Of a stretch of 64,000 bases of DNA, positions 39,113-64,000 are shown one piece after another. How positions within the stretch are numbered: the first letter of the stretch is position 1; the number at the start of each line of letters is the position of its first letter. Made by a program: the position numbers and the translations under genes. The notes under the pieces were generated by a model. The model was not told where the DNA came from. It saw nothing but the letters and a program-made list of their open reading frames with translations, and made no database searches. Origin of the DNA: a virus; the IMG/VR virus record IMGVR_UViG_3300012642_000011, positions 288,001-352,000 of that record. One strand, written 5' to 3'.

Positions 39113-39178
39113 CCAGAAGGTTTGACTACCAGAGGGCAGTGCTTTGCTCAAAGCCCGTCTGGTGTCCTACCCTCCCAA

Positions 39179-39231: not shown

Positions 39232-39232
39232 C

Positions 39233-39305: not shown

Positions 39306-39309
39306 ATGT

Positions 39310-39460
39310 CTGGCTTATACAGTCATTTAACTCACTTGCCCCCGAGTGAGCACCAGAAAATCTCTGTTCAGTTACCAATCTCCAACTTCTTATATGAACT
39401 ACGGCGATGCTAAAGACAACGCCGTTTCTGGCTTCACAGGAATATGCTTAATCAGACCTT
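39310..39460 (-). ncRNA. putative TnpB guide (omega or right-end RNA) region
   Basis: By analogy with characterised TnpB systems, the guide RNA is transcribed from the 3' end of tnpB into the right end. This region holds two hairpins. No direct sequence evidence of expression exists. Confidence 0.25.
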
Positions 39461-40753: not shown

Positions 40754-40805
40754 CTCCTTGATATAATAGGCTATCTTATCTTATTATATCAAAAGGTTGG
40801 TTGTG

Positions 40806-41198
40806 ATGGGTGCTGTTCAGAATTTGCGTTATCATTTTGTTTTTGCTACGAAGTTTCGTAGGGGGTGTTTTAGTGGTATTGAGGGTGATGTGGTGAGGGC
40901 GATTGAGTATGCTGTGTCGAAGTCTTCATGCAAGTTAGAGCGTGTTGCTGTTGAAGATGGGGATCATGTTCATTTGGTAGTGAGGATGTCTGGGACTTAT
41001 TCTGTTTCTGGTTTAGTGAACCGTTTGAAGTCTTTGAGTTCTCATCATTTGTGGGAGATGCAGGGGGATCATTTGAGAAGATTTTATTGGGGTGGTCGTC
41101 ATTATTTGTGGAGTGGTGGTTATTATGCTGCTACTATTGGCGATGTGAGTGCTGATCATGTTGATAAGTACCTGAAAAAGCAAGGCCACTGGAAATAA
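40806..41198 (+). CDS. tnpA: TnpA, HuH Y1 transposase (IS200-like)
   Basis: LRYHFVFATKFRR (HuH and the YH..V motif) and GDHVHLVV (HxH) are present, with the C-terminal Y in GGYYAATIGDVS. It is divergent from tnpB. The track ORF starts at a TTG at 40797. Confidence 0.8.
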   Translation: MGAVQNLRYHFVFATKFRRGCFSGIEGDVVRAIEYAVSKSSCKLERVAVEDGDHVHLVVRMSGTYSVSGLVNRLKSLSSHHLWEMQGDHLRRFYWGGRHYLWSGGYYAATIGDVSADHVDKYLKKQGHWK

Positions 41199-41305
41199 TA
41201 CACTTGCGCTTACATCAGCGAGGCTGAAGACCTCGCCGCTTTACGCGCTTTCGTGTAACGGTATCAATGAAAACATCAAGCGTTTTTGGAATTAACGATC
41301 TCATA

Positions 41306-42085
41306 TTAAGAGATCTCTTCGAGATGGATCAATGGTCTTGAATATCCCTCTACCTTGTGATCCATATCAACACTGATAACCCTGAACTTTGTTCCTCTGG
41401 CAAGGGTAACCTCTTCCTCATAAGATCCATCCTCATTCCACTTCGCTGATTGAGTAGTATCAATCTTCATCAGAACACCAGAGATATAATCAGGAGCATT
41501 CATACCAGAGAACTCATGAGATATGTCTTCAGATGTAGAAGTAGACACGAACTCATTGAAGACAACCTCGTTACCAGCCTCCCCGATATGCTTCTTCACC
41601 CATTCTACAGGATTCATGTCAGTCTTGCGAGGAAGATCGGAATTTGCTGTCTTCACCCCACGAAAAAGAGTATGATTTGATTTTCTACGAGGGCACCTCG
41701 CCAACGCTTTATCCATGTTATCAATCACTTTTCTTTGATCATCAGATAAACTGCCCACATCATCACGTCTCAAAGCATCATTGATCTCACCATGCTCAAA
41801 GGAACCATACGATTCCCAAGCATCCCTCTCATCATCAGAAAGAGAATTTCTCCATGTTGATACAAGAGAAGAATGATTTGTAGAAGACAAGGACGACACA
41901 GAAGAGAATGATCTCTCCAAAACTTCCTCAGAAAAAGAATGTGCCTCCTTCATGTTCTCAAAATGCTGTACTGAACCCAAGGGGCATTCAATCTTATCTG
42001 CCCTGCATCTGTTCATCTCGCCAGTTTTGCTGCTCACGTGATACTTGACCATTATCCCTCCCCATGTTTTCAGATGAACACACAT
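41306..42085 (-). CDS. mono-ADP-ribosyltransferase of the R-S-E class (C3, Alt or Mod-like toxin fold)
   Basis: Arg motif HTLFRGV, STS motif VSTSTS and ExE motif EEEVTLARG appear in the canonical order and spacing. Confidence 0.55.
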   Translation of the reverse strand: MCVHLKTWGGIMVKYHVSSKTGEMNRCRADKIECPLGSVQHFENMKEAHSFSEEVLERSFSSVSSLSSTNHSSLVSTWRNSLSDDERDAWESYGSFEHGEINDALRRDDVGSLSDDQRKVIDNMDKALARCPRRKSNHTLFRGVKTANSDLPRKTDMNPVEWVKKHIGEAGNEVVFNEFVSTSTSEDISHEFSGMNAPDYISGVLMKIDTTQSAKWNEDGSYEEEVTLARGTKFRVISVDMDHKVEGYSRPLIHLEEIS

Positions 42086-47169: not shown

Positions 47170-48903
47170 TCAGGGTCTGTCTTGATGAAAAGGAAACGTA
47201 AAACGTATCTTACCACAATCATAAACTCTCTGAATCCCATTGATATGAGCCAACTGTGATTCAGTTAAAGATTCATCATAAAAAAGCGAAGGATCATTCT
47301 TAAACCTCTTCTTCCTGAAACCGAACTTATGCTTCCTCTCATTCCTGAAGATGTAGTAATAATCAGGAGGCAATATCTTATCCTGAATCCATCCTGTTTT
47401 CTCATACAAACCACCATCAGAAAAAGATAAATCAGCAAACGTCGTTAGCATAGAATTCGGATGCTCTTTCATGAATGCTTTGACTATTTTAGAATGACCA
47501 CCAATGACATGTTCAGACGTAGAATACCTCTCCAATATGTAACCATTCTTTGCCTTCTTGAAGGATGCAATTGCTACAAGAACGCCTGATCCCTTGTCTT
47601 TCAGACCCCAATGTTCAGAAGCACTCACTGATCCTTGAATGTGATTACTCTCATGGAATGCTGATGCTTCCCACCTGTCCACTATGCTGACATTCGTATT
47701 CCTTGCATAAATTCTTCTCTGATTATTAATTCCCATCACATGCTGAACATGCTTCTTGACAATCTCTTTCTTATTATTCCAATCATCCTCCCACACAGTT
47801 AACAATCTGATCCCTTGATCATGGCATGCCCAATATTTTTCAGAGTGCTTTTTCTTCCCCGAGAATTTTTCCTGATGCCAATAAATACCATTAAATTCAA
47901 TGGCTACATTGATCTCTGGAAGATAGATGTCAAGTTCCTTTCCGTTGAGAACTTTCCTATCATTAGTGATGATTCTGCCATCATAGACATCCATAATGAA
48001 TTCAATGAATTCCTTCTCCCGCTTAGATGTCCCTGCTTCATCACATTTACGACACCCTTCCTTGCCAGCAAAGTGAGCATCAAAGGACTGATAGAATGTG
48101 CCATGATCATCTATTGTGCAGATGATAGGAGAAGATGTTTTAACATTGAAGGAACTCAAGTCAACCTTGGAGTAATCATACCTGCCAGATCCATGAGATT
48201 GTATCTTGTTGTCAAACTTGGCAGTATCATATGGGGCATATTTATTACATTTTCTACAGCCGTTGTTTCCTCTTAAGTGAGAGTTGGCTTCAATCCTATA
48301 GGATTCACGGTGCTCATTACAGATGACAGTGATTTTCTCATGAAGGTTCTTGAATTGCATCACTTTGGAGTAATCAAATCGATCTCCATGTTTCTCTTTT
48401 GCTCTTGTGACATATTCTTGTACAGAGATCACACTTTGCCCATTGCATTCAGAGCAACCGTTCATTCCTCGTAAATGATTTTGAGCATTCTGGGTGAACT
48501 CGCCATGTTCTCTGCAAAGAACAGTGATCTGGTCAGCCATTTTGGTAAATCTCGTCTGGGAGTAATCAAATTTATCCCCATGGATTTCTTTTGCCTTTTG
48601 AATATACTCTTCAGGAGACATTCTTCTTGTTGCCATAGCGCATTCTTTGCACCCTGTACCACCTTTGCTTCCCAAATGTGTGTTAGGGTAAGTAGAGAAT
48701 TCACCATGATCAGGACAGATGATGATCACTTTTTCTTTGAGTTTAGTGTACTGCGTTGGAGAGTAGTCAAACCTGTCCCCATGAATACTTTTTGCTCTTT
48801 GAATGAAGTCCTCTGTATTCCTGATTCTCATTCTATAATGTCTCCTTGAGCAAAAGTAAGATCCTGTGAACATGAGTTGACCATGTTCACAGGATCTTAC
48901 CAA
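47170..48903 (-). CDS. freestanding homing-endonuclease-like protein with N-terminal tandem zinc-ribbon repeats and a C-terminal Vsr or DUF559-like PD-(D/E)XK nuclease domain
   Basis: At least four repeats of about 60 aa have the form IHGDRFDYS...C.EHGEF...HL.G..GC..C. The C-terminus ELDIYLPEINVAIEFNGIYWH resembles Vsr or DUF559. The gene sits between nrdF and nrdE. Confidence 0.5.
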   Translation of the reverse strand: MVRSCEHGQLMFTGSYFCSRRHYRMRIRNTEDFIQRAKSIHGDRFDYSPTQYTKLKEKVIIICPDHGEFSTYPNTHLGSKGGTGCKECAMATRRMSPEEYIQKAKEIHGDKFDYSQTRFTKMADQITVLCREHGEFTQNAQNHLRGMNGCSECNGQSVISVQEYVTRAKEKHGDRFDYSKVMQFKNLHEKITVICNEHRESYRIEANSHLRGNNGCRKCNKYAPYDTAKFDNKIQSHGSGRYDYSKVDLSSFNVKTSSPIICTIDDHGTFYQSFDAHFAGKEGCRKCDEAGTSKREKEFIEFIMDVYDGRIITNDRKVLNGKELDIYLPEINVAIEFNGIYWHQEKFSGKKKHSEKYWACHDQGIRLLTVWEDDWNNKKEIVKKHVQHVMGINNQRRIYARNTNVSIVDRWEASAFHESNHIQGSVSASEHWGLKDKGSGVLVAIASFKKAKNGYILERYSTSEHVIGGHSKIVKAFMKEHPNSMLTTFADLSFSDGGLYEKTGWIQDKILPPDYYYIFRNERKHKFGFRKKRFKNDPSLFYDESLTESQLAHINGIQRVYDCGKIRFTFPFHQDRP

Positions 48904-48913
48904 TTTCTATCAA

Positions 48914-49888
<975 letters not shown>

Positions 49889-51215: not shown

Positions 51216-52238
51216 ATGATCATCAGAAAGTCCATAGCCATGGAAACATTGTCAAACTATGTACCATTATTAGCAATTTTAACAGGCAGTTCATTAATAT
51301 GGTTAACATGCATCATACTTCTTGTTATTTGGCTTTTAATGATTTTGAATTTGGTCCTCAAAGGAAAAGTAGCATCTGCTATGCTTTACTTAGTATTATC
51401 CTCGTTTTTAATTTTACCTATTTTCTTTTTTGTACGAAACCTTGAAGATAAACAATCTGCTAACCCTGCTGGGGGCGTCATTGAAACAGACACACAAGAA
51501 CCAGCCACGGCAGTAGAGACAACACCGCCACCAGCAGAATCTATACCTGATCCTGTAGATTGGTCATTCCTTCCATGGTTTGTTGGCATTGCTATTGTAT
51601 TGATTGCAGTTGTTGCTGCCTTCTTTGTGATGGCTCATTATCTTCCTAAGATGATGTCTGCAAGAGACCAGAGGAAACAGATGGAGATCAATCAGAGAAA
51701 TCATAGAAATGATCTCATCGACAGGAGGAATAGAGCAATTGCTTCTATTGAGTCTACCGTCACAGAAAGAGGACGAATTGAACTTGACCCAGTATGGACT
51801 TTTGATTACCCCGAGTTTACTAACATGTCTTCTCCTGTGATCATTGAACTCTCTAGAAAACAAAAGATTGCTGTTTCTAAAGCCGATTTCATCAAAAATG
51901 TCCCAGATGATTCTTTGACTACAGATGACATCAAGGAAGTAGAACATGCTTCCAGCGAGTTCGCTGCACAGTTGGAGACGGCTAAAGAGTACGCGGAGCA
52001 AGTCAAGTGGGGAGTTCTCTCTAGGGAAGAGAAGAAACTTTTGAAAACAGCAAAGCAATTGTTGAACATGGTGTCAGATGAGTCAGCATCTGAAAATGAA
52101 AGGCACGGAGCACTGAAATCATTGGCTAATGTAGTTGACAAGTTGAGGAATGACTATGGGCGTATGTCCTTTAACGTGACAAAGTTCTATACAGCCATTG
52201 AATCCACATCTAAAATGAAGATGTTGACTGCAGTATGA
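51216..52238 (+). CDS. membrane protein (N-terminal TM helices, C-terminal coiled-coil-like region)
   Basis: Four hydrophobic segments lie in the first 150 aa. An AT-rich divergent promoter region sits upstream. Confidence 0.5.
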   Translation: MIIRKSIAMETLSNYVPLLAILTGSSLIWLTCIILLVIWLLMILNLVLKGKVASAMLYLVLSSFLILPIFFFVRNLEDKQSANPAGGVIETDTQEPATAVETTPPPAESIPDPVDWSFLPWFVGIAIVLIAVVAAFFVMAHYLPKMMSARDQRKQMEINQRNHRNDLIDRRNRAIASIESTVTERGRIELDPVWTFDYPEFTNMSSPVIIELSRKQKIAVSKADFIKNVPDDSLTTDDIKEVEHASSEFAAQLETAKEYAEQVKWGVLSREEKKLLKTAKQLLNMVSDESASENERHGALKSLANVVDKLRNDYGRMSFNVTKFYTAIESTSKMKMLTAV

Positions 52239-52345
52239 TGCTGAATTGACAATTGATTGAAACAGAGAAGGTGGGATAGAAATCAAATCTATCCCACCTT
52301 CTTCGTGTTATCTATGAAGTTGTAGTTTTGAACATAGGACAATGA

Positions 52346-52909
52346 TCACTGGTTGTATTCAGTGATGAAGATATCAACTTCACCAGATTTTGAGGTGTAT
52401 CCTCTGATGATATCCTTGTCATCTTTGTACATTGTTCCTGTTGATCCTTGTCCATGTGAGTCAATGTAGTATTCTTTGACCTTGACATCATGGATAGTCT
52501 TCTCTCCAATGTACTCTACGTCAACGTCATCTTTCTTGATGAAGTCTTCTACGCTGTCAAGCGTGGCAAGGGCGAAATCATAATCTCCCTCTTCTTTAGT
52601 CTCATAACTATTGGGGAAGACCAGTTGCTCACCGCTGAGAGCAACCCTACTGCCATCAGATGTAAGATGAACTTGTTCTTTATCCAATGCTGTCTTGACA
52701 AATACTTCCTTGGGAGAGTTCTTAATGTAGGATGCCTCTGTGAACTTATCATGCATGCTCTTAAAGCCTACAGTTCCGCTTGTGGTAGAAGCGTCATTGT
52801 TGTCTATCTCATTCATCAGAGCGTAGGCAGAGGTAGTAGATGCTGCAACGACCATTGCAATACTTGCTCCAAAGACCAATGGCTTGGTGTATTTCTTCAT
52901 GTGTTTCAA
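52346..52909 (-). CDS. secreted hypothetical protein
   Basis: Signal peptide MKHMKKYTKPLVFGASIAMVVAASTTSAYA. Confidence 0.5.
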   Translation of the reverse strand: MKHMKKYTKPLVFGASIAMVVAASTTSAYALMNEIDNNDASTTSGTVGFKSMHDKFTEASYIKNSPKEVFVKTALDKEQVHLTSDGSRVALSGEQLVFPNSYETKEEGDYDFALATLDSVEDFIKKDDVDVEYIGEKTIHDVKVKEYYIDSHGQGSTGTMYKDDKDIIRGYTSKSGEVDIFITEYNQ

Positions 52910-53028
52910 CCTTGTCCAATCATGTTGATGTCTATGTTCACCTCTTATGATAGCAAACGATCATATTTTGGTATGAAACAATAAAGCACACAGGTTTTTA
53001 GTTGACCTGTGTGCTTTATTGTTTTTAA

Positions 53029-53646
53029 TTATCGTTTCTTGTTTTTCCTTCTTGTTCCTCTGTCAGAAAGAGAACTTCTCATTTCATATGTTTTTCTCTT
53101 GTTCTCAATGTCTCGTGGGTCAGGTATTCCATACTTCCTCAAATCCGCTTCTTTGCTTGTCATTCTGATGAATGCTAGGAGGGAAAGGAAGAGGGATGCA
53201 TATAGTGCAGATCTCGCCGTGTAGGCTGCGTCAAACTCGCCACCATAGATCAAGACGATAAGGAACACAGCAGCCACGATTGCAATACGTACACGCCATG
53301 CATAGGACAATCTGAACCTAAAGGGAATCCATTGTGGGTCTCTTGCTTTCATGACATTGCTTAAGAAGATGCTGACATTATAAAACAGACTGAAGAAGAG
53401 AAGAGAACCGGGAATGAGCATGAGGGATCTCAATACCATGAACAATTGCGTAAAGGGAGTAAAGATATCAATGAGTGCAGCGATGACAATGAAGACGACT
53501 AAAGAGATTCCTGTTACGGTGAAGAACTGCTTGAAATTCGTGTTGTACTGTTTTCTTAGCATGACAAGATAAGATATGAAAGGTTTATCTTTGTCAAGCC
53601 AAGCAAACTTGTTTCTCTTTGTTGTTTGTTCTGCTGCTGTGCTCAC
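53029..53646 (-). CDS. membrane protein (multi-TM)
   Basis: Hydrophobic 205-aa ORF that overlaps the upstream helicase gene by 4 nt. Confidence 0.5.
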   Translation of the reverse strand: MSTAAEQTTKRNKFAWLDKDKPFISYLVMLRKQYNTNFKQFFTVTGISLVVFIVIAALIDIFTPFTQLFMVLRSLMLIPGSLLFFSLFYNVSIFLSNVMKARDPQWIPFRFRLSYAWRVRIAIVAAVFLIVLIYGGEFDAAYTARSALYASLFLSLLAFIRMTSKEADLRKYGIPDPRDIENKRKTYEMRSSLSDRGTRRKNKKR

Positions 53647-56411
53647 AGTAGTCTCCCCTTTGAAATGAATAGTTGAGATGCATCTTTAAGTGCTTGTTCT
53701 CTGTTCTCTGAATTCAATATCCTCTTTGCAGATTCCACTGTTTCATCAATCAAGTGTTTATGTGTCAGAAGGTCAGCAAAGAGCATTTCGCTGTTTCCTG
53801 ATTGCTCTGTTCCGAAGACAGTTCCTGTTCCACGGTTTTCCATGTCTGCCTGAGCAACATCGAATCCATCTGCGTGATCCACAATGTTCTGTAGTCTCTT
53901 TTGGCTATTCTTAGTGTTTCCAATGGAGACGAGATAGCATTTGGATGGCTTTTGGTTTCTTCCTACACGACCTCTAATTTGGTGCAATGAGGCTGATCCC
54001 AATCTGTCTGCAGAGAGTACAATGACCCTAGTGGCATCAGGGATGTCTACACCAACTTCAACAACAGTGGATGCGACAAGGACATCATATTCCTTGTTGC
54101 GGAACTTGGTCATTGCTTCCATTTGATCATCTGGTTTCATTTTTCCATGGACGTATCCTACATTAATAGAGGACAGCACTCCATTGTTAATGGATTCATA
54201 TGCTTTTTCCACTGATGCTGCATCGATCTTATCTGATTCCTTCACCATTGGGGCAATGATGAAGGTCTGGTTCCCTGTTTTTGCTTCATCTATGATGTCC
54301 TGCCACATGGGGTGATCCTTCTCATTGATAATTTGAGTAGGAGATTCTTGTATCCATTCAGTGACAATGGGGATTCTGCCAGGTGGCTTCTCATCAAGAA
54401 TAATCATATCTACATCGCCAAAGAAACTCTGAGCAATAGAGCGTGGAATAGGCGTTGCTGTCTGCTGGATGAGATCTGGAACACGCTCATCTTCTCTGCT
54501 GGAAAGAAGTCTGCTTCGATCTTCTGCGGAGAATTTCTGTTGTTCGTCAATCACAATCAATCCGAGATTATTGTATTTCATTTTTGTTTTGACGAGTGAC
54601 AGTGTTCCTACCACAATGTCGATCTCTCCATCCGCCACCTTCTTGTAAATAGCATTCTTCTCTTTTACTTTCATGCTTCCTGTGATCAGAGCAATGCTAA
54701 CATCGTCTCCAAGGGGCGCAACAGCCCTCTCAAGACCTGCATACAACTGTCGGGCAAGAACATCTGTTGGGCCAACAATAGCAGACTGGTAGCCCGATTC
54801 TGCTGCTCTCAGGCATGACAGGAAAGCAATGATAGACTTTCCTGAACCTACGTCAGCGTTGACGAGGGTTGATGATGGTTCACTTCCTGCTAGAGAATGA
54901 TTAATTTTCTCTAGTGCTTGAGACTGAGCATTGGTCAACGTAAATGGAAGAGACTCAATTGCTTTCTGTTGTAATGCTGAATCGGATTCTTCCATCTTGA
55001 TTCCTTGATGAGAAACCTGATTCCTTCTTGATTCTTGAAGGACGAGTTGCATATAGACCATCTCATAGAAGGCAAGTGTGTCCATGCATGCTTCATGGTG
55101 CTCTGGGGAAGATGGGAAGTGCAGTTCATTGAACGCTTCTCCTGTAGGCATCTTATTATCTGGTTCAAAGTATTCAGGCATGGAGATATCAGCACCGCTT
55201 CTTGCTATCAACTCTCTGATAGCAGAAAGAATCAGTTTGGTAGTGATTCCCTTGGAGGGTTGCTGTTTGTACACAGGGACAACAGGAAGAAGTTCAGCAT
55301 CTTCCATGTGATCAATGGAGATTCCACTGATTTGGGGCTTTAAATTGAAGTAACCGAATTTTCCTGTAACAATGACTTCATCACCCGTCTTGAAACGTGT
55401 AAGCAACCATCTTTGATTGAAGAAACTGACTCGGAGGTTGTTACCACCTTCAGTTTTGATCATGAAATAGATTCCTGATGCTCTTGTTCTTGGGTTGCCG
55501 AATTCTCCTGAGGAATCAATCTTTCCAACGATTGTCGCTGTTTCTCCTTCTTCAAGGTCTTTTAAGTCCTGTGATTCATTCTTGAAAATATACTTTCGTG
55601 GAATAGTCATAATAAGGTCATGCAGGGTGGCATATCCTGATTCCCTCATCTTCTCAGCGAGAGTTTTCTCTGATTTCCTCAACTGGTCATTGCTTTGTTT
55701 GTTTGCTCTGATGACATTGAGTTCTTCAATGTCAACGAACCTCAATGAATCCAGTGTGCCATCAAATCCTTCAATTGGGTCATTGACTAGTCCGTACACG
55801 TCATCATCTACACGGAATGGGGGAAACCTTTCATCCATGTTCTCACAAAGAGATTGGAAATCAAGAAGTTTTCCTATTTGAAGGGAATAAATGCCTGTTC
55901 TTCTGTAGTAGGCACTAAGTTTTCTCAACACATCAGTATACACCCATACTTGTGGAGCAGAGATTTCAATAGTGGTCTTATCATCACTAATTCTCACATG
56001 CGGATCAACAGCGTTGTCAGCAAGTGTAGCCAATGCTTTCACGTCTTCTTTGGAGGACAATCCACCATGAATAGACTTGATAATATGGCGAAGAATAAAT
56101 GCATTGACAGATGACCTGTTAGCTTCCCAGATGTTTTTGGAAGTTTTGGAGAAACCCTCTAGTTTATTAAGATCTTCATCTGTAGAAAGATCTTCAATGG
56201 AATAGAATTTGATCTTGTTGTTGTCAACATGAATGATGACTCTTTTATAAGTTTTAGTGTATGCCCATTCTGGCTTATTGTCTTCACTAAATAGATTAAA
56301 CTTCTCTTCTTCTAAAGTCTCATTATCTTCTGAAAGTTCATCAACGCCCTCAGGAGGGAGAAGAGGTACAATCTCCTCTCCCTCCCACAAGTCAACTTCA
56401 ACTATTCTCAT
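53643..56411 (-). CDS. RecG-like SF2 DNA helicase with an N-terminal extension
   Basis: The OB wedge reads LRVSFFNQRWLLTRFKTGDEVIVTGK. Motif I is DVGSGKS, motif II is VIDEQQKF, motif III is TATPIPRS, and motifs V and VI read LVASTVVEVGVDIPDA...HQIRGRVGRN. Confidence 0.75.
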   Translation of the reverse strand: MRIVEVDLWEGEEIVPLLPPEGVDELSEDNETLEEEKFNLFSEDNKPEWAYTKTYKRVIIHVDNNKIKFYSIEDLSTDEDLNKLEGFSKTSKNIWEANRSSVNAFILRHIIKSIHGGLSSKEDVKALATLADNAVDPHVRISDDKTTIEISAPQVWVYTDVLRKLSAYYRRTGIYSLQIGKLLDFQSLCENMDERFPPFRVDDDVYGLVNDPIEGFDGTLDSLRFVDIEELNVIRANKQSNDQLRKSEKTLAEKMRESGYATLHDLIMTIPRKYIFKNESQDLKDLEEGETATIVGKIDSSGEFGNPRTRASGIYFMIKTEGGNNLRVSFFNQRWLLTRFKTGDEVIVTGKFGYFNLKPQISGISIDHMEDAELLPVVPVYKQQPSKGITTKLILSAIRELIARSGADISMPEYFEPDNKMPTGEAFNELHFPSSPEHHEACMDTLAFYEMVYMQLVLQESRRNQVSHQGIKMEESDSALQQKAIESLPFTLTNAQSQALEKINHSLAGSEPSSTLVNADVGSGKSIIAFLSCLRAAESGYQSAIVGPTDVLARQLYAGLERAVAPLGDDVSIALITGSMKVKEKNAIYKKVADGEIDIVVGTLSLVKTKMKYNNLGLIVIDEQQKFSAEDRSRLLSSREDERVPDLIQQTATPIPRSIAQSFFGDVDMIILDEKPPGRIPIVTEWIQESPTQIINEKDHPMWQDIIDEAKTGNQTFIIAPMVKESDKIDAASVEKAYESINNGVLSSINVGYVHGKMKPDDQMEAMTKFRNKEYDVLVASTVVEVGVDIPDATRVIVLSADRLGSASLHQIRGRVGRNQKPSKCYLVSIGNTKNSQKRLQNIVDHADGFDVAQADMENRGTGTVFGTEQSGNSEMLFADLLTHKHLIDETVESAKRILNSENREQALKDASQLFISKGRLL

Positions 56412-56475
56412 CTTCTACTCTCCATTCGAATCTATTTCAGAGAGGAAGATCGTTGTTACTACTTAGTTGACTGCT

Positions 56476-57792
56476 TCACTTCTGGATACGATCTAAAGAA
56501 TCCTGATCCAACTCTCCGATTGCATAAACTATTCGTCTTGCATACTTTATTTTATCAAAAGGGTCTCCAAGATCAATGTTGGAATACTCTTCAACTTTAG
56601 CGCCAAGGAGCATGAGATTATCATTATCGTAATCGAGTACAGTGAATGCTCTATCCAGTGGGTCTTCAATATTGATGACTGATCGAAGAAGATTCAATCC
56701 TTCATCTTCTTCAGTGATCTTTCCTGTCATCATGTGGTAGACGATGTTTGCATAATTCAATTCGCCTTCTACCTGCTCATGAATCCTCTTCTTCTCATCG
56801 TCTGACATCTTAGAATATTCATTGTAGGTAGCAAAAACATTCTCAACGTCACTAAGAGTAATCTCATATGTTGAATGCTCTTCAGGTGGTGTCACCATCT
56901 GAACAGGTGTGCTATTTGCAACAGGTGTGCTATCTGAAACGTGATGATCACTAACAGAAGACTGATGATCTTCCGTTGTCTCATCTGTAGATGAAACAGT
57001 ATCTTCTTGTGCATCTGTGACTACAGATGTCACATCATCGTTGACATGCTCAACATTTTGTGTTTTATTATCTGTGTTTGCAACAGTTGACTCTTCAGCA
57101 TTGTTTTCATTGAGAGCAATGTTATCGTATCCGAAGGAGTAAGTGATCTCTTCAACCCTGGGTTCAAAGACACTTGAATCAAAGGGCTTTTCAGTATCGC
57201 TTTCATTGGTATTAGTAGAGGGTTCCTCTTCATTGTAGTATGAAGAATAATCCTCTGTTGGTGAGACTGTTTCTGTTTCTCCTTCTTTAGTGTCTTCATA
57301 CTCAATGGTGGTAGAAGATTCCTGAGTGTTATCTTCTGGTGCAGAAGTATATTCAGACGCAACTGGTGAAGAATAATCATCCTGTGTTTCATTCTCAGAA
57401 TAATCCGTGCTGAACATCTCTTCTTGACTCTGGTTAACCATGTCGTTTTGTGGCTCAGGTTCTGCTTTCTTACTGTTTCCGAAAATGCTGATCTTCTTCA
57501 CGTCTTCCTCGTTGTTTGTCTGAGAATAAGATGGAGTTGTAGGTGATTCATCTTCTTCATCGTTGAAGAAGTCATTACCTTCGTCTTCATCATCTGTTAA
57601 GCCACTGCTCCCAAAATAATCAGCACTGCTTGAGAAAGCAGGCTCTCTCGTGAAAATACTTGGGTCGTAGGGGATATCGCCTTCATCAGATTCCTCTGAC
57701 ATGGCTTCAGTAATGAAGTCGTACTCTGACTCTTTGCCCGTATTGAAATCGGACTCTTCTGAATGATAAGATGAACTCATATTTACTCTCAC
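56476..57792 (-). CDS. highly acidic, low-complexity protein (438 aa)
   Basis: The sequence is D, E, S and T-rich throughout and overlaps the upstream gene by 4 nt. Confidence 0.5.
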   Translation of the reverse strand: MRVNMSSSYHSEESDFNTGKESEYDFITEAMSEESDEGDIPYDPSIFTREPAFSSSADYFGSSGLTDDEDEGNDFFNDEEDESPTTPSYSQTNNEEDVKKISIFGNSKKAEPEPQNDMVNQSQEEMFSTDYSENETQDDYSSPVASEYTSAPEDNTQESSTTIEYEDTKEGETETVSPTEDYSSYYNEEEPSTNTNESDTEKPFDSSVFEPRVEEITYSFGYDNIALNENNAEESTVANTDNKTQNVEHVNDDVTSVVTDAQEDTVSSTDETTEDHQSSVSDHHVSDSTPVANSTPVQMVTPPEEHSTYEITLSDVENVFATYNEYSKMSDDEKKRIHEQVEGELNYANIVYHMMTGKITEEDEGLNLLRSVINIEDPLDRAFTVLDYDNDNLMLLGAKVEEYSNIDLGDPFDKIKYARRIVYAIGELDQDSLDRIQK

Positions 57793-59873
57793 TTTGTTTG
57801 AATTGATTCAGTAATTACAATATCCTTATTTTCGTTTACAGAGATGACAATTCCGTGCGAAGAATTATTATCTCTTGTCTCAAGGTATTCAGCAAGAGCA
57901 TGGGAGATGACTTTAGATGTCTCTCGCTTGATTTCTCTTGCGCCATACTTATTGATCTGAGATTTCTCAATGATGATGTCAAGAATGCTGTGATCAAAGT
58001 CCTCAATGTGAACATCAGAATTCCTTTTCATTCTTTCTGACAGAGTATTGATTTCCTTCTGAGCAATAAGGTAACCCGTTTTTTCATCAAGATTATTGAA
58101 GATGATCATTCCGTCAAGTCTGTTGAGGAACTCAGGTTTGAAGTTTTTCTCCATCTCTTTTCTGAAAGCATCCTTGGATTCTTTTTCAGCATTGTCCATG
58201 AAGTTTGACGGCTGGAACCCGGAGATCTTCTTAGCATTCGCAGAAGACTCAACTCCTGTATTGGTTGTGAGGACAATAATAGACTTGGAAAAGTCAACAA
58301 CGTCACCAGAGGATGATGTTGCCTTTCCCTCATCAAGAACGCTCATGAACGCCATCCAAATGTCCTCGTGCGCCTTTTCTACCTCATCAAGAAGGATCAC
58401 TGTACGCGGATTGTCCTTGACAAACTTTGTCAAAATGCCGCCACCGTTCTCATCGAAGCCAGCATAGCCAGGAGGAGCACCGAAGAGTGATGATACCTTG
58501 TGCTTTTCAGTGTATTCAGACATGTTGATGAAAAGGAAACTCATCTTCTCGTCAGCAATGTTCTCAGCAATCTGCTTTGCCGCTTCTGTCTTTCCTGTTC
58601 CTGTAGGTCCAGCGAAGAGGAATGATCTCAAAGGCTTCTGGTCATCAGTGAGGCCATTGGTAGCAATCTTAAGGCTATCGACAATCTGTTTGAGTGCTTC
58701 ATCCTGACCTATAATCTTGTCTGAAAGAATTTTGTACAAGTCAGATGACTTCTTGTAAGAGATGGGGTTCAACTTAACAATGTCACTGACAATCTTTCCA
58801 TCAGCAAAGTGATCTGCTACTTTGACAAGTGAAGGCTTTCCTTCATCGTCGTAAAGATCTTCATTCTGTGCAAGAACATAGTTACCCGCAATTTTCTGTG
58901 TAATGATGATCCAGATGGAAGGCGAGAGCACTGAGAAACCATCATGATATGCAGCACTCTTTCCGACCTTTTCCTCTACAGCATTGATAGCAATCCTGAT
59001 GTCTTCCTTAGTGAAGTCAATCTTGAACTTTTCATTGATGTACTTATTGGTATTGTGGTACAAATAGTCCTCAATGAAGTTCTTCTCAAGCGGGATATCT
59101 GCATCGCTTACTTCCCAATTGTCATCTTCGCTAACGCCCTCATTCAAGAACTCTACAAGGTGTTCTTTCTCACCATAGATGATGATCTTCGCATCGCTCT
59201 TGAGCAATGAGACAGCCTGTGCAACAGTTGGGGAATCTGTCACTACGCAGATAGAGGAATCCTCAATGGCATGGTCATCTGTTACTTTCTCAAAGATGAA
59301 GTTAAAAAGATCGCTCGCATCGATGTCTACACTGTCTTCATCGACAGTGTTAATGTTGAAGTAATCCGAAGGGAACTCATCTTCATCATTCTCTTTGACA
59401 TCATTCTTTTTGAATCGAGAAATAAGTCCCTTAATATGCTTTGCAGCCTTGGAGTATGATTCTTCCTCGTGTGTGAGATTTTCCTCTCTCACATCATCGT
59501 CATCATTGGAATCCTCATCTGTGGATTCATCATTGTTTACAGAGGAAGCAAAGGCGCGAGAGAAAATCTGCAAGTTCTCATCGTCAATATGAACAAATCT
59601 CATATCTGAATCTTCATCGATCCTCGTGGAATAGCGAGAGAAGTCAGAAACGAACTGATGGGTAAGGAAACGGGAAGATAGTTTATCATCTGCAAGTACA
59701 CAGATTCTGCCGGATTCATAGAATCCGACAGCCATCTCGTCTATTTCTTCTTTATAATTTTTAGGAAGTTGCGAGATCTCCATAGGTGAAAATCCATTAT
59801 CTTTCATCGTGACATCCAGTGTTACTACGGAAGTGTTTTCTGTTGTTTCATTGGCGAAGTTTGTCACTCGCAA
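57789..59873 (-). CDS. AAA+ ATPase with a single ClpA/ClpB D2-type (AAA-2) module and an acidic N-terminal domain of about 390 aa
   Basis: IIGQDEALKQ...FLFAGPTGTGKTE (Walker A) ...VILLDEVEKAH (Walker B) ...FKPEFLNRLDGMIIF (sensor-2 region). This is near-canonical Clp D2. Confidence 0.75.
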   Translation of the reverse strand: MRVTNFANETTENTSVVTLDVTMKDNGFSPMEISQLPKNYKEEIDEMAVGFYESGRICVLADDKLSSRFLTHQFVSDFSRYSTRIDEDSDMRFVHIDDENLQIFSRAFASSVNNDESTDEDSNDDDDVREENLTHEEESYSKAAKHIKGLISRFKKNDVKENDEDEFPSDYFNINTVDEDSVDIDASDLFNFIFEKVTDDHAIEDSSICVVTDSPTVAQAVSLLKSDAKIIIYGEKEHLVEFLNEGVSEDDNWEVSDADIPLEKNFIEDYLYHNTNKYINEKFKIDFTKEDIRIAINAVEEKVGKSAAYHDGFSVLSPSIWIIITQKIAGNYVLAQNEDLYDDEGKPSLVKVADHFADGKIVSDIVKLNPISYKKSSDLYKILSDKIIGQDEALKQIVDSLKIATNGLTDDQKPLRSFLFAGPTGTGKTEAAKQIAENIADEKMSFLFINMSEYTEKHKVSSLFGAPPGYAGFDENGGGILTKFVKDNPRTVILLDEVEKAHEDIWMAFMSVLDEGKATSSSGDVVDFSKSIIVLTTNTGVESSANAKKISGFQPSNFMDNAEKESKDAFRKEMEKNFKPEFLNRLDGMIIFNNLDEKTGYLIAQKEINTLSERMKRNSDVHIEDFDHSILDIIIEKSQINKYGAREIKRETSKVISHALAEYLETRDNNSSHGIVISVNENKDIVITESIQTK

Positions 59874-59930
59874 CCTCTTTCTTCTGTCTTATGTGCTTAT
59901 GTTCAGCATTGTATCAAAAACAGTAGAAGA

Positions 59931-60872
59931 TCACTCACTCTCCCTGTACTTTCTCTCTTCAAGGAGAGTAGCAAGCCTGTTGACGTACTCCTGAAGGCTA
60001 GTGATCTGATCGTACATCTGGTCAAGTGAAGAGCCAGGAACAGCGTCAACAATCACTTCAGGATCAGGGAAGGTCTCGGAGGAGATAGCCATGTTGGAGA
60101 GGTTGCTCAGCACATACATTACTTCTGGTGAAACTCCACCTTCGCCCTTGATTTGAACATCAATGAACTCACCATCTGCAGATGAAGTGATGTTGTCAGG
60201 AGCGTCTGGTGTGAACCCTTCACTGTCCTTATTGGTTTCCTTTCCATCATGCTCTTCAAGGAAAGCATCTGCAGCCATTTCAAGGCCCTTACTGATGCCG
60301 TCAGCCTCCGCTTCAGCCAATGACTTCTCCTTGGCCTCAATAGCCTTCTTGTCTTCTTTCTGCTGCTCTTTCTTTTTCTTCATCATCTCTTCAAGGAAGT
60401 CTTCTGCCTCTTCTGCAGTCTTACCTTCTGTGGCTTCTCTCACCTCATCAGTGATGCGAGGAAGTTCCTTCTTGATAGCGATAGCCTGAGCTTGTGTCAA
60501 CTTTACCTTTGTTCCTTCAGGTGTTGCTTGCTCAAGTTCACGGATGACTCTTGACATGTCAAGAAGTCTATAACTGGTTTGTGGAGAGATTTCGAACTCT
60601 GTCTGCACATACTCTTTCCACGTATTGTAGCCAAGAATTCTGTATGCCTTGCCATCGTGTGCTCTAGCAAGAAGAATATAAAGAGCATCTGAAGTTGATC
60701 TGATTGCTGTAGTGAGGTCTTCTGCTTCCTCACGACTCATGGTTGCAGAACTTTCAATGATGTCATTGACATCTGAGATCATTGAATCATCTACTTCAAT
60801 TACTTCACCGGAAAAGTCCTCTTCTTGATCTTCAAGTTCAAGGTCTTCAATACTGTCGAGAATGTCATCCAT
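59931..60872 (-). CDS. acidic hypothetical protein (313 aa)
   Basis: The ORF is E and D-rich, with a KKKEQQKEDKK coiled segment. Confidence 0.5.
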   Translation of the reverse strand: MDDILDSIEDLELEDQEEDFSGEVIEVDDSMISDVNDIIESSATMSREEAEDLTTAIRSTSDALYILLARAHDGKAYRILGYNTWKEYVQTEFEISPQTSYRLLDMSRVIRELEQATPEGTKVKLTQAQAIAIKKELPRITDEVREATEGKTAEEAEDFLEEMMKKKKEQQKEDKKAIEAKEKSLAEAEADGISKGLEMAADAFLEEHDGKETNKDSEGFTPDAPDNITSSADGEFIDVQIKGEGGVSPEVMYVLSNLSNMAISSETFPDPEVIVDAVPGSSLDQMYDQITSLQEYVNRLATLLEERKYRESE

Positions 60873-60905
60873 GGGTTTTCTCCTTTGTCATAAAACTTTC
60901 CCCTA

Positions 60906-61571
60906 TCATAGCAAAACTGTTTTTAATACTATGATCAATGCAGGCCAGATAAAAATGGGCACCATGGGGAATGAAATTTTAGTAGTCAATATCTTTACCT
61001 CTTTATTCCTGATTTTAAAAATCAATGTATAACCAATGAGGAAAAAGAGGAATAAGTAGAGGTAGTAATTCAAACCTTGCACACCTGCAATGGGAACAAT
61101 GGAAGCACAGACAAGGATCATTGCTCTGGTATCAGACATTCCAATACCTTTGAAGAGGATTCCCAGTCCTACAATAATAAGAACAAGCAGGTAGAACATG
61201 AATGAGGACATCATATCGTTTGCCGCGTAATCCCATAAGGCGCAAGCAATCACAGAAACATAACCCATGATAAGTGTCCATCTGTATGCTCTTCTCACCT
61301 TGAAGTCAGTGACTGTTTGTACTGATGTGTACACAAGAGAAGAGGTTACAGCAGCAAGCAAAGCACTCAATGATGTAGAATTATTAATGTGATCTGCTAT
61401 AAAAAAGGACAAGCCAAAATTTGCAAGTAATGTGACACTAAGTGCAACAAGGTTGAGTTTCTTCCAATCAAATGGGTGCATTTTTTCACTCTTCATCCAT
61501 TTTTCTTGAGTCTTAAAACTGATGAAGAAAAGGAGAAGAGAAAAAATAACTGATAAACTAAGAAACAACAT
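60906..61571 (-). CDS. polytopic membrane protein, possibly an A24-family (prepilin or preflagellin-type) aspartic peptidase
   Basis: About 6 TM helices. Two candidate catalytic Asp blocks, TDFKVRRAY and GIGMSDTRAM, resemble the D..R and GxGD.K motifs. The match is weak. Confidence 0.35.
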   Translation of the reverse strand: MLFLSLSVIFSLLLFFISFKTQEKWMKSEKMHPFDWKKLNLVALSVTLLANFGLSFFIADHINNSTSLSALLAAVTSSLVYTSVQTVTDFKVRRAYRWTLIMGYVSVIACALWDYAANDMMSSFMFYLLVLIIVGLGILFKGIGMSDTRAMILVCASIVPIAGVQGLNYYLYLFLFFLIGYTLIFKIRNKEVKILTTKISFPMVPIFIWPALIIVLKTVLL

Positions 61572-61674
61572 GTGTCCGCCTTTAAATAACTATGGTATCG
61601 AATAAAAATATCAGATGTTTACAGCAAAATAGCACTGAGAAGAAAATCTCAGTGCTATTTTGATCAATGATCAA

Positions 61675-62838
61675 TCAGAGCGCGACAATACACACAGTGA
61701 AGATCTCTTCAATGTCATTTCCATCATTGTCTACACAGACAACCTGCATGACCTTTGATTGCTCCACCCACTTGATTTTCATGTTGGCGGTAGTGACAGG
61801 CAACATAGCCTTTCTCACAGCATCTCTGAGAACAGTGATCTCAATGTCTTCTTCAATCTCTGAATCAATGAGGTCAATATTAATGCTGTTATTGTCATCA
61901 ATGTCACTCATGCTCATCTTAGAATTCTTGATGACAACCTTTAGATTCTTGGTGTTAGAATCCAAAGAAAGGTTGGAAATAGCGTTCAATGCTTTCTCAA
62001 AATCCTTCTTGCTGAATGTAGCAGACTGATTCGTTTTTTCAGCAGCCGCCTTCATCTGTTCGGAAGGCTTCATCATAACTTCATCAGAGTTGGTTGAGAA
62101 AAGGACGATTCTACCGTCACCGAAGGAATAACCGAATCCCATATTGGTAGATGTAATCAATGCAACAGGAGACCCTACTGTCTTAGTGGAGTTGGCGATA
62201 GTAGCCTTGGAAGCAGGAAGAGCATATGTCAACTGCTGTTTTTTCTTTCCACCTGCTGTCTTTGCTGGCACGAAGGGAACTCTGACTTCACTGAATGCGA
62301 ACTTGTCTGTCGCAATAGCAATAACCTGTTCAGATCCTGTTTTCTCCATATCGAAAACAAACCCAACAGAGTTGACAAGTGTCAGCGTACTGGATGGATC
62401 GGAAATCTTGGACACTCTTGAAATGATTTCAAAGAACTCTGCTTCATCAACTTCACCAATAGTGATAATCTCTGGCTCTGATGGTGAGACTTGATCCAGA
62501 AGAGGAATATGGAACTTGTTTCCCCCTTGCGTTTTCACAAGAAGTTGGCTCTTCTGCTCTTCGATCTGCATTTCACCAGGAAAATCCTTGATGACTTTGG
62601 CAAGGTTCTTCACAAACTTGGCGTCCATGAGAATTTTTGTTTCCTCAAAATCACCATTGAAGTTGCTGATGTCAAGATTATCCTTTGCATATTGTGTACC
62701 ATCAAAGAAGTACACATGCGCTGAATCCTCTGAATCCAATGCCAAAATGACGGGATGTGTTTCCTTTAACGCTGCTCCCTGTGTAACCCAAGAAATTGCA
62801 TTGGAAAAATCTTCGGAATTTATTTTAAACTTCATCAA
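61675..62838 (-). CDS. dnaN: DnaN-like DNA polymerase III beta sliding clamp
   Basis: The N-terminus MKFKINSEDFSNAISWVTQGAALKETHPVILALDSED is diagnostic of beta clamps, and the length of 387 aa fits. Confidence 0.65.
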   Translation of the reverse strand: MMKFKINSEDFSNAISWVTQGAALKETHPVILALDSEDSAHVYFFDGTQYAKDNLDISNFNGDFEETKILMDAKFVKNLAKVIKDFPGEMQIEEQKSQLLVKTQGGNKFHIPLLDQVSPSEPEIITIGEVDEAEFFEIISRVSKISDPSSTLTLVNSVGFVFDMEKTGSEQVIAIATDKFAFSEVRVPFVPAKTAGGKKKQQLTYALPASKATIANSTKTVGSPVALITSTNMGFGYSFGDGRIVLFSTNSDEVMMKPSEQMKAAAEKTNQSATFSKKDFEKALNAISNLSLDSNTKNLKVVIKNSKMSMSDIDDNNSINIDLIDSEIEEDIEITVLRDAVRKAMLPVTTANMKIKWVEQSKVMQVVCVDNDGNDIEEIFTVCIVAL

Positions 62839-62931
62839 TGATACACTCCCTTTAAAATGGTCTAAACTTTACTTTATTATAGCGAAAGAGCAAGCCAATG
62901 AATGACTTGCTCTTTCGTTTTTTCAAAATTG

Positions 62932-64000
62932 TCAATTGACCATCTTGAGAACAATCTCCTTCTGCGTTCCCACAGCAAGTTTCTCCCCAGCAGGAATTGA
63001 CTGTTCACCGATCACACCGGATGGGAGACCATTCTGAGAAGCAATCTTCTCCTTGCTTACATTGGACTTGACGCCAGTTGACCTCAACGTATCCAATGCC
63101 TGCTCAGGAGACATACCCACTACGGAAGGAACTGTAAAGAAATCCTTTCGCTCAACAGGGACATTGACACGATCAGTGCTGGTGTTGTTGAAGTCAAGAG
63201 GAACAGGTGTAGTTCCCTTGAGTACATCCTTCATCACAGATGATCCAGCAATCACAGCAGTGCTTGTACCTGCACGGCCACCACGGAACCAGAAGTTTCC
63301 ATTCACACCACGAGTCATCTTATCCATGTCAGTGATGTTGATGAAGAGAGAATAATTCTTGGAAACCTGACCCCATGTGTAGTTGTAGTTCTGGTTAGTA
63401 CCAGACTTTCCTACAGCATCATAACCGGGAACGTTACCCATCAAACCGAAGGCATTGTCAACATGACCAGGTACAGTGTTTGCTCGCATAGCACGAAGAA
63501 CAGTGGACGCTGTTCTAGGACTCATAGCCGCACGGCAACTAGTGTCTTCAGGGTTATAACTCTCAGGAACAACGGGTGAAGTTCCATCAGAGTATTCATA
63601 ACTCTTCACTGATGTAGGAGGACAGTACACACCTTCATTAGCGAAGGCGGCATAGGCAGCAGCCATATCAATAGTAGAGTTTCCTGTAGCACCAAGGACA
63701 TAGGACATTGACCTGTTAGTGACGTTCTCAGGAGTATGCAGACCGAGTGAATCTGTCATTTTAAAGACAGGCTCAAGACCAACAAACTCTCCATTGGGAT
63801 AAGCAATCTTCTCAGCAAGGGCAGTGAACCATGTGTTTGATGAGTAAGCAGTAGCCTGCTCAAAGTTCAAATTCTGTGACTGAAGTTTGCTACAACCAAG
63901 GCTGTTACTGAATCCGCCACTAGGCTCATCGAAGTCACTGAAATAAAGAGGACATGGTGTGGAGAATTCCAACTGCTGTGGAGACATGCCATTTTCAAGA
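62932..64000 (-). CDS. class A penicillin-binding protein, C-terminal transpeptidase domain plus PASTA domain (N-terminus lies beyond the window)
   Basis: LGATGNSTIDMAAAYAAFANEGVY is a class A PBP block. The KTG motif appears as KSGT. The C-terminal FTVPSVVGMSPEQALDTLRSTGVKSNV is PASTA. The ORF is open at the window edge. Confidence 0.65.
   Translation of the reverse strand, partial: LENGMSPQQLEFSTPCPLYFSDFDEPSGGFSNSLGCSKLQSQNLNFEQATAYSSNTWFTALAEKIAYPNGEFVGLEPVFKMTDSLGLHTPENVTNRSMSYVLGATGNSTIDMAAAYAAFANEGVYCPPTSVKSYEYSDGTSPVVPESYNPEDTSCRAAMSPRTASTVLRAMRANTVPGHVDNAFGLMGNVPGYDAVGKSGTNQNYNYTWGQVSKNYSLFINITDMDKMTRGVNGNFWFRGGRAGTSTAVIAGSSVMKDVLKGTTPVPLDFNNTSTDRVNVPVERKDFFTVPSVVGMSPEQALDTLRSTGVKSNVSKEKIASQNGLPSGVIGEQSIPAGEKLAVGTQKEIVLKMVN

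Follow-up and report, generated by a model that had tools for sequence, protein, structure and literature searches.

Introduction

What would bring a sliding clamp, a RecG-like helicase, a Clp-type ATPase, two strongly acidic proteins, membrane proteins and a cell-wall synthase together in a single run of genes? This question is raised by one end of a 64,000-nucleotide stretch of the IMG/VR virus record IMGVR_UViG_3300012642_000011 (positions 288,001 to 352,000 of that record; the whole stretch is hereafter called the window), where nine genes lie on the minus strand between positions 52346 and 64000. An initial annotation, made from the letters alone, had described these genes as a candidate novel operon and had considered replication as well as anti-restriction functions for it. 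The evidence assembled here makes it probable that the block is a conserved replication-recombination core of giant uncultured extrachromosomal elements, most likely jumbo phages associated with Actinobacteria. Mobile-element replication modules are a known kind of system; the parts of this one and their wiring are new, and the elements that carry it form an apparently undescribed group. A search of the literature found no description of the block, nor of its ATPase and of the family of one of its acidic proteins, acid313.

A conserved gene block and its kernel

A check of the open reading frames (ORFs) of the window recovered all nine genes, and the short or overlapping junctions reported between them were confirmed, with values from -4 to about 120 nt. 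In the direction of transcription, they encode the 3' part of a class A penicillin-binding protein (PBP), a DnaN-like beta sliding clamp, a polytopic transmembrane (TM) protein of 221 amino acids (aa; TM221), an acidic protein of 313 aa (acid313), an AAA+ ATPase of the Clp/Hsp100 type, a second acidic protein of 438 aa (acid438), a RecG-family helicase, a further membrane protein of 205 aa (TM205) and a protein with a signal peptide. That such an association could be a chance juxtaposition was to be judged by a test set beforehand, namely whether the neighbourhood is conserved elsewhere; the gene order is kept across very divergent relatives, and the association is therefore not a chance one.

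A scan of metagenomes with an alignment of acid313 yielded 70 loci, many of them on contigs of 250–440 kb and one on a contig of 674 kb, and family hidden Markov models (HMMs) built from the block proteins were then run over these loci. Counts of downstream genes were restricted to the 43 loci with at least 5 kb of sequence past the acid313 homologue. The RecG-like gene is the next gene downstream in 39 of them and is followed by TM205 in 38, with strand and order unchanged, and this order is held at 21–49% identity and across guanine plus cytosine (GC) contents of 37–60%. The invariant kernel of the block is formed by acid313, the RecG-like helicase and TM205 in this fixed order. It is usually preceded by TM221 (25 of the 47 metagenome loci having enough sequence upstream of the acid313 homologue), by an element-encoded beta clamp (DnaN homologues occupy the same position in loci L008, L009, L011, L015, L017 and L025) and, in many lineages, by a class A PBP (in the same position in L008, L017, L025, L036–L045 and L047). 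Two conserved membrane proteins, TM221 and TM205, flank the core, and in the sub-clade of the window the AAA+ and acid438 genes are inserted between acid313 and the helicase. The same gene order is seen in L005/6, L008, L017 and L025 at 25–59% protein identity, and the full block (PBP, DnaN, TM221, acid313, AAA+, acid438, RecG, TM205) is present in at least 14 loci, at 22–50% identity and GC contents of 0.37–0.60, on contigs of up to 674 kb.

The surroundings of the block in relatives point in one functional direction. They include genes for DnaB, an IstB-like loader, MoxR, RecA, PIF1, an S26 signal peptidase, NucS and NrdE/F (in L008 the S26 peptidase and PIF1 genes stand beside the block), and further genes for GyrA, RadA, a sigma factor, SbcC/D and MazG. 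Relatives also carry a DnaE-like polymerase and a clamp loader. Given these replication-gene neighbours, the block is considered to belong to an autonomous replication region of the Pol III type. The initial annotation had pointed out that dnaA, recF and gyrB are absent, which is correct within the window, and had concluded that this is not a canonical replication locus. In relatives, genes close by encode DnaB with a loader, RecA and GyrA, and also a polymerase like Pol III alpha and a clamp loader. Its alternative suggestion of a mobile-element replication module is supported by the conservation of the neighbourhood in divergent relatives. The polymerase of the relatives is closest, at 39% identity, to the DnaE-like Pol III alpha of Streptomyces, Mycobacterium and Gordonia phages and thus resembles the DnaE-like Pol III modules of actinophages; the best-matching Streptomyces phages have genomes of about 50 kb, unlike the giant elements described here. 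Some proteins of the relatives are oversized, e.g. RecG in L008 (1156 aa) and DnaB in L025 (818 aa), with inteins as a possible cause.

A rearranged version of the block was observed in a distant branch, on two ENA contigs of 386 kb and 420 kb (L015 and L016), where the order is PBP, a 184-aa protein, DnaN, AAA+, an acid438-like protein, a gap and acid313; genes for MgsA/RarA, a TcpC-domain protein and a RecA/DnaB-like ATPase lie beside it, and no RecG was found within 10 kb.

The acid313 family comprises 24 clusters among 5.8 billion, all metagenomic and unnamed, and two scans of 185,579 GTDB species genomes found no relative of acid313 apart from one weak match in a metagenome-assembled genome. 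A single acid313 sequence gave no match in IMG/VR, where the acid313 alignment as query did find relatives. The region has no megablast match among 50,697 phage records; tblastn against phage records found no full-length acid313 homologue and, with the RecG-like helicase and the AAA+ ATPase as queries, only RecG and Clp proteins of cellular type at about 30–40% identity, many on contaminant-like records. The exact RecG protein of the window occurs on 17 metagenomic contigs of up to 332 kb. The larger related contigs measure about 110–674 kb, many of them 250–440 kb, and relatives are listed as viral in IMG/VR, including contigs of 319 kb and 361 kb. Among the large contigs are ERZ1674051 NODE_1 (304 kb), ERZ27289831 k141_11150 (332 kb), ERZ772924 NODE_1 (400 kb), Ga0206103_100008 (437 kb) and Ga0308157_10000029 (674 kb), with IMGVR_UViG_3300045988_174371 and _179268 from IMG/VR. 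The carrier is an uncultured extrachromosomal element and not a cellular chromosome. The chromosome of a tiny symbiont was also considered and was rejected on three counts: cellular housekeeping genes are lacking, ORFans abound in the window, and acid313 is absent from GTDB.

The helicase, the sliding clamp and the penicillin-binding protein

The helicase gene (53643–56411, minus strand) encodes the complete architecture expected of RecG, i.e. the wedge, domains 1 and 2 of helicase superfamily 2 (SF2) and the C-terminal region, with Pfam matches to RecG_wedge (1.3e-7), DEAD, Helicase_C and RecG_dom3_C. Residues 252–894 match the RecG of T. maritima (1gm5, 2e-105), and the first 250 residues or so are extra. 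Against the NCBIfam RecG models the protein scores 542–588 bits, below the equivalog cut-offs of 659–718 (541.9 versus 659.4 for TIGR00643; 588 versus 718 for NF008168), and by sequence it is a divergent member of the family and not an equivalog. With bacterial RecG (1gm5) it has in common the wedge and the two RecA-like domains, and the NCBIfam RecG alignment is near full length. It differs in its N-terminal extension, in the gene with a ParB-like helix-turn-helix (HTH) upstream and the 4-TM gene downstream, and in being encoded by a mobile element. According to an alignment and a motif survey, the extension is a conserved feature, and in the clade that bears the AAA+ ATPase it opens with (I/V/F)DLW. 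A functional analogue in phages is UvsW of T4, and the activity to be expected is regression or branch migration of forks, D-loops and R-loops.

The clamp gene (61675–62838, minus strand) is very divergent. Its product matches phrog_947, 'DNA polymerase processivity factor', over residues 1–343 (1.6e-11), and the N-domain of Pfam DNA_pol3_beta at 2e-4, which is below the cut-off (21.9 versus 24.4); no NCBIfam match was found. The best PDB matches in a phmmer search are mycobacterial clamps, e.g. DnaN of M. smegmatis (5ah2, 2e-6, residues 2–228).

The PBP gene (62932–64000, minus strand) runs off the end of the window, which holds its 3' part with the Pfam domains Transpeptidase (1.6e-14) and PASTA (7e-11). 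On related contigs (L001, identical) the full protein has 829 aa, with Transgly and Transpeptidase domains and one PASTA domain, as in a class A PBP. The motifs EDKRFYEHSG, SAYK, SSN and KSG are intact, and the enzyme is predicted from them to be catalytically intact. Its score against NCBIfam PBP_1a is 257 bits, with a cut-off of 509.

The Clp/Hsp100-type ATPase and the acidic proteins

The AAA+ ATPase (57789–59873, minus strand; 692/694 aa) matches Pfam AAA_2 (4e-46) and ClpB_D2-small. Its D2 module (residues ~374–688) is ClpC-like, 37–41% identical to the D2 of bacterial Clp ATPases, with all ATPase and catalytic motifs intact; the Walker A and B motifs, the pore loop, the sensor, the Arg residues and the D2-small domain of Hsp100 proteins are all present. 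The loop that aligns with the ClpP-docking VGF of ClpC reads ISGF here, and an xGF sequence is found in all homologues (A/S/T/I-G-F; canonical IGF in four). The protein thus shares with ClpC, ClpA and ClpE the D2 module and an [x]GF loop at the VGF/IGF position, and lacks their Clp_N domain, M-domain and UVR motif. No Pfam Clp_N or AAA match precedes residue ~376, so that a canonical D1 or Clp_N is missing, and the score against NCBIfam ClpA is 256, with a cut-off of 993.

In the N-terminal domain, a Walker A motif is present in 12 of the 14 distinct homologues, and an AlphaFold2 (AF2) model displays an alpha/beta pattern followed by a helical lid; in the protein of the window the domain is a degenerate nucleotide-binding domain. 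In the lineage of the window its Walker A has been lost and an acidic insertion of about 70 aa (~113–180) has been gained. The family of this domain has six representatives among 1.84 billion proteins in an exhaustive search, and a word-indexed search returned no match. The earlier description of a single-ring ClpB-D2-type protein with a unique N-domain is thus only partly right: the copy in the window does have one active nucleotide-binding domain, as has the single-ring Skd3/CLPB, but this is a derived state, and most homologues keep the Walker A of the N-domain.

The two acidic proteins have different layouts. In acid313 (59931–60872, minus strand; pI 4.24, 24% D+E), a conserved N-terminal peptide MxDILDxIEDL is followed by an acidic linker, a candidate HTH domain (~47–150), a long helix and a C-terminal three-helix domain. 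Its AF2 model, built with 18 homologues, is all-helical (pLDDT 70.5), and the top Foldseek matches of this model in the PDB are all ParB-family DNA-binding domains (Noc, P1 ParB, Myxococcus ParB, SopB, VirB and Spo0J). These fold matches weakly suggest that acid313 is a DNA-binding protein with an HTH fold of the ParB/Noc/SopB type; no sequence-profile match was found in Pfam or the PDB. Residues 28–127 are similar to a 'DNA binding protein' of a mycobacteriophage and to hypothetical proteins encoded near the ends of Streptomyces linear plasmids. The likeness to ParB, Noc, SopB and KorB is confined to their DNA-binding domains. The N-terminal CTPase/Srx domain of the ParB family is missing from the sequence and from the model of acid313, which is set apart further by the acidic peptide and linker at its N-terminus, by its long coiled helix and by a C-terminal domain of a different kind. 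ParB systems also have a cognate ParA, and none adjoins acid313; in one relative a ParA-like gene lies some 25 kb off.

Most of acid438 (56476–57792, minus strand; pI 4.05, 25% D+E) consists of about 300 aa of acidic low-complexity sequence, after which comes a helical domain at the C-terminus (about 110 aa; motif DRAF.(I/V)L). Conservation is confined to this C-terminal part. The C-terminal domains of two groups of positional analogues align in hhalign with 94.8% probability (E 5e-8), and by this sequence comparison the domain is homologous across all positional analogues.

The acidic proteins had been taken as possible DNA mimics, and a further explanation is an anti-defence or defence module, in which acidic mimics would act against restriction enzymes, with the AAA+ ATPase and the helicase in an effector role as in Dodola or the candidate system PDC-M37. 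Both acidic proteins are indeed very acidic (pI 4.0–4.2), and in PADLOC the ATPase weakly matches PDC-M37B (1e-32) and DolB (6.5e-24), while the helicase matches the Cas3, DpdF and PbeA models. These matches, however, span the generic AAA_2 and SF2 cores only and are far weaker than those to Clp and RecG; the acidic proteins have no PADLOC match, nothing but one marginal match was obtained for the five other proteins, and no defence system is identified. The fold matches of acid313 weakly favour a ParB-type DNA-binding protein over a DNA mimic, replication genes are neighbours in every relative, and acid313 is absent from cellular genomes. A function in defence or anti-restriction is therefore highly improbable, and this explanation should be dropped.

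Membrane proteins, hairpins and transcription units

TM221 (60906–61571, minus strand) was recognized as a polytopic membrane protein by hydropathy and alignments; it has six hydrophobic segments and a pI of 9.6. Five aligned homologues or positional analogues have T88, D89, R93, D147, P160, P202 and P205 as invariant residues. The two invariant Asp residues are D89, in 'TD...R', and D147, and the GxGD motif is absent. An assignment to peptidase family A24, which had been made earlier, was rejected: five members gave no Pfam match at E<=10 and no PDB match was found, so that the label has no HMM or PDB sequence support. TM205 (53029–53646, minus strand) is a basic protein with about four TM segments, as seen in its alignment, and nine invariant residues, mostly charged (D60, P64, R73, R110, R112, R120, R161, T163 and E166); no match was found in Pfam, PHROG or NCBIfam. 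Wherever it is present, its gene comes after that of the RecG-like helicase. The last gene of the run (52346–52909, minus strand) encodes a protein of 187 aa (184 aa from ATG) with a signal peptide; its only homologue is in the closest relative, L005.

The run is interrupted by perfect hairpins, detected in a repeat search. One of 16 bp (61625–61662), just 3' of the DnaN stop codon, has a 3' arm ending in UAUUUUG and is possibly a terminator or attenuator between DnaN and TM221. Another, of 20 bp (52976–53024), lies directly 3' of the TM205 stop codon and is likely an intrinsic terminator that closes the core unit. A third, of 15 bp (52266–52302), is found 3' of the gene for the secreted protein, between it and a gene for a 340-aa membrane protein (51216–52238, plus strand; about four TM segments and a C-terminal coiled region) that converges on the block and has homologues only on identical contigs. 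The secreted-protein gene, with hairpins on both sides, is probably a separate unit and lies outside the conserved core. The run is probably split by these hairpins into two or three transcription units, and the layout suggests one that ends with PBP and DnaN, one from TM221 through acid313, AAA+, acid438 and RecG to TM205, and one with the secreted protein; this three-unit split agrees with the pattern of conservation. A single nine-gene transcript, as in the operon first proposed, is unlikely because of the strong hairpins 3' of DnaN and TM205, and also fits poorly with a secreted protein shared only with the closest relative and with AAA+ and acid438 genes that are absent from whole sub-clades. 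A palindrome between PBP and DnaN, TTGTCAATTGAC, was considered as a candidate operator and is not enriched; the repeat search found no iteron-like repeat family between 49.8 and 64 kb.

The hairpins bear as well on whether the proteins of the block act together at all. The genes might be neighbours only through shared timing, as parts of an early or middle replication region, with no complex formed and with the PBP, the membrane proteins, the ATPase and the acidic proteins acting independently. Apart from the division of the run, this explanation draws on the absence of AAA+, acid438, PBP and DnaN each from some sub-clades and on the rearrangement in L015 and L016, where the ATPase gene is beside DnaN, far from acid313, and RecG is missing within 10 kb. 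It is nevertheless unlikely in view of the order of the kernel, maintained in 38–39 of 43 loci over the whole range of identity and GC content given above, of the 4-nt start/stop overlaps at the AAA+/acid438 and RecG/TM205 junctions, and of family-specific N-terminal peptides that co-vary with gene content.

Nature and hosts of the elements

The hosts are most likely Actinobacteria. This assignment is made because of Lsr2 and NucS, the mycobacterial matches of the clamp, the resemblances of the acid313 HTH and the type of the polymerase. The Lsr2 gene of the window (29171–29872, minus strand) encodes a protein of 233 aa with three Lsr2 DNA-binding domains (5e-30). Lsr2 is a protein of xenogeneic silencing in actinobacteria and actinophages, and Lsr2 and homing endonucleases are common in actinophages.

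Whether the elements are phages or plasmids is a closer question, in which a phage is favoured and considered roughly twice as probable. Signs of a phage in the window's element are the many ORFans, often tiny, a T4-type RNA ligase, Phage_gp86, tRNAs, inteins and genes for homing endonucleases or HNH proteins, and relatives carry endolysin or tail-lysin-like proteins. Oral jumbo phages of more than 300 kb have been reported (bioRxiv 10.1101/2020.07.06.186817).

The competing explanation is a giant, megaplasmid-like element, an actinobacterial counterpart of the 'Inocles' of Streptococcus, in which the block would be the replication and segregation region, acid313 a ParB-type binder of a centromere or origin, and the membrane proteins and PBP a means of coupling maintenance to the envelope and cell-wall growth of the host. 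Inocles are elements of 245–395 kb from oral Streptococcus hosts, with a GC content of 24–32% and with a conserved bifunctional PBP, S26 signal peptidase, Pol III alpha, gyrase, RecD-like helicase and RpoS (PMC12340149). As far as can be judged from their description, they have in common with the elements studied here the size class, the human oral origin and genes for a class A PBP, a signal peptidase, Pol III, gyrase and helicases, and both were missed by earlier surveys. The parallel in gene repertoire (PMC12340149) extends to the S26 peptidase and PIF1 genes beside the block in L008. A plasmid would also be in keeping with the genes for a ParA-like protein, a sigma factor, GyrA, RadA and an AAA_10 ATPase on a 62.5-kb IMG/VR relative, which has no structural genes in about 60 kb, with TcpC and TraX in other relatives, and with the absence of a saliva contig, BNJV01002094, from a list of jumbo phages. 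However, the likeness to Inocles is one of gene content as described, whereas their GC content and Streptococcus hosts differ from the GC of 37–60%, the actinobacterial markers and the many phage-like genes of the elements here. The phage signs listed above, together with an Alt-like ADP-ribosyltransferase in relatives, the actinophage DnaE-like type of the polymerase and the listing of relatives as viral in IMG/VR, also tell against a plasmid. A megaplasmid is thus a possible but rather doubtful identity for these elements.

Several observations weigh against a replication-recombination core of jumbo phages and have to be set beside the evidence for it. Neither the window nor some 90 kb of related contigs yielded a capsid, portal, terminase or tail-tube gene, and the regions examined are a minority of any one genome. 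The ParA-like protein, the AAA_10 ATPase (VirB4/HerA-like), TcpC and TraX of relatives fit a plasmid, and BNJV01002094, a contig of 254,652 bp that carries the block, does not appear in the VirSorter jumbo-phage table of PMC7782811. The HMM scan of the loci found AAA+ and/or acid438 missing from several sub-clades; being dispensable there, these two genes count as accessory genes, confined to one clade, and the core does not include them. PBP and DnaN were likewise not detected beside the kernel in some sub-clades. On the protein level, the Foldseek matches of acid313 have E-values of 0.3–2 and TM-scores of 0.3–0.47 on the target, and hhalign, by which the profiles of the ATPase N-domain and of ClpC D1 were compared, gave no significant result. 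That the DILD peptide of acid313 occurs together with the ATPase is confounded by phylogeny, as the peptide marks one clade, and the proposals of clamp binding, ClpP docking and a recognition tag, made below, come from short motifs only and may not hold.

Other features of the window and of related contigs

The GC content of the window falls from about 52% (1–39 kb) to about 41% (40–64 kb). The drop (38400–41200) coincides with three tRNA genes (Leu, Glu and Asn) and with an insertion sequence (IS) pair of the IS200/IS605 type, TnpA (40797–41198) and TnpB (39452–40753). Short-read contigs stop at the IS, and L031 runs on into a different gene, for a 544-aa AAA protein. Both GC regimes are found on the 332-kb contig k141_11150, arranged differently from the window; a placement of the window on this contig was rejected, as the two are not collinear. 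Given the contig breaks at the IS and the lack of collinearity, an IS-mediated rearrangement or an assembly join is assumed at 38400–41200.

Beside the IS lies a gene for a 259-aa protein of the ADP-ribosyltransferase exoenzyme type (41306–42085, minus strand; ADPrib_exo_Tox, 8.5e-13); in relatives, an Alt-like ADP-ribosyltransferase and an ADP-ribosylglycohydrolase (L021) were seen. It is followed by NrdE (42279–46859, minus strand; 1526 aa), interrupted by intein sequences (Hint_2, Intein_splicing, LAGLIDADG_3), by a gene of the DUF723/HNH type for 577 aa (47170–48903), which lies between nrdF and nrdE, and by nrdF (48914–49888). The part with high GC content harbours dozens of ORFs of 50–150 aa with no known family, and also the T4-type RNA ligase (PHA02142/RNA_ligase, from a database gene call; 4225–5229, minus strand) and a GmrSD_C/HNH_4 nuclease (6574–7503, minus strand). 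The Phage_gp86 domain protein is found on related contigs (L022), where its gene lies immediately outside the window on the upstream side.

Two related IMG/VR records deserve a separate description. IMGVR_UViG_3300007368_000275 (62.5 kb; L009, L019, L020, L027 and L028), examined almost whole, encodes large proteins of 1275 aa and 994 aa of no known kind, a ParA-like protein of 578 aa, a sigma factor, SbcC, an AAA_10 ATPase, RadA, YdjM, GyrA and TnpB, and no recognisable virion gene was found in it. In IMGVR_UViG_3300007335_000107 (109.5 kb; L011, L021 and L103), the block stands at the start of the contig and the genes that follow the block in relatives stand at its end. From this arrangement the record appears to be a circularly permuted and possibly complete genome; at about 110 kb it would be far smaller than the relatives of 250–670 kb.

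A working model and its implications

How the members of the block might work together can be outlined as follows. The clamp would serve the Pol III-type replisome of the element itself, and the RecG-like helicase would remodel forks, D-loops or R-loops for recombination-dependent replication or restart, in the manner of UvsW or RecG/PriA. As a presumably sequence-specific protein, acid313 would target the helicase to its sites; the (I/V/F)DLW peptide of the helicase is similar to QL[SD]LF, the pentapeptide that binds clamps, and through it the helicase may dock on the clamp. The Clp-type ATPase, possibly with ClpP of the host, may remodel or degrade the nucleoprotein complex as a dedicated factor. 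In the motif survey the MxDILDxIEDL terminus of acid313 was found only where the two-domain AAA+ is present, and because of this restriction to the clade with the ATPase it is a candidate recognition tag. TM221 and TM205 may tether the complex to the membrane. The coupling to the envelope that the initial annotation had suggested is conceivable, with these two conserved proteins at the flanks of the core and a class A PBP in the block of many lineages.

Parts of this model have counterparts in systems in which ClpA acts on RepA of P1 and ClpX on MuA and on lambda O. The likeness would lie in a Clp-type gene near a DNA-binding protein with a conserved terminal peptide; the difference is that the unfoldase is supplied by the host in those systems, whereas here the element encodes its own. 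In its most specific form the model describes an undescribed clade of elements (~250–670 kb) of Actinobacteria with a complete Pol III-type replisome, a membrane-flanked kernel and, in one branch, a private, ClpP-dockable, two-tier Clp unfoldase that remodels or degrades the replication or segregation nucleoprotein complex of the element. This version is speculative, and it is more probably wrong in some part than right as a whole. If true, this Hsp100 protein would be the first that is encoded by an element and dedicated to replication control, and it would be wired to a class A PBP that the element encodes as well.

If the block is indeed the replication-recombination core of such elements, it is the signature of a large and overlooked group of giant elements, partly human oral and only partly included in viral catalogues, and the three-gene kernel is a practical marker to find and classify them. 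A partner with sequence specificity seems to target its RecG-family helicase, and the sliding clamp perhaps does so too. A Clp/Hsp100 motor that the element encodes within a replication operon would extend the paradigm in which a host Clp protein acts on plasmid or phage initiators. The presence of a cell-wall synthase and of membrane proteins among replication genes repeats the same unexplained theme as in the recently reported Inocles (PMC12340149).

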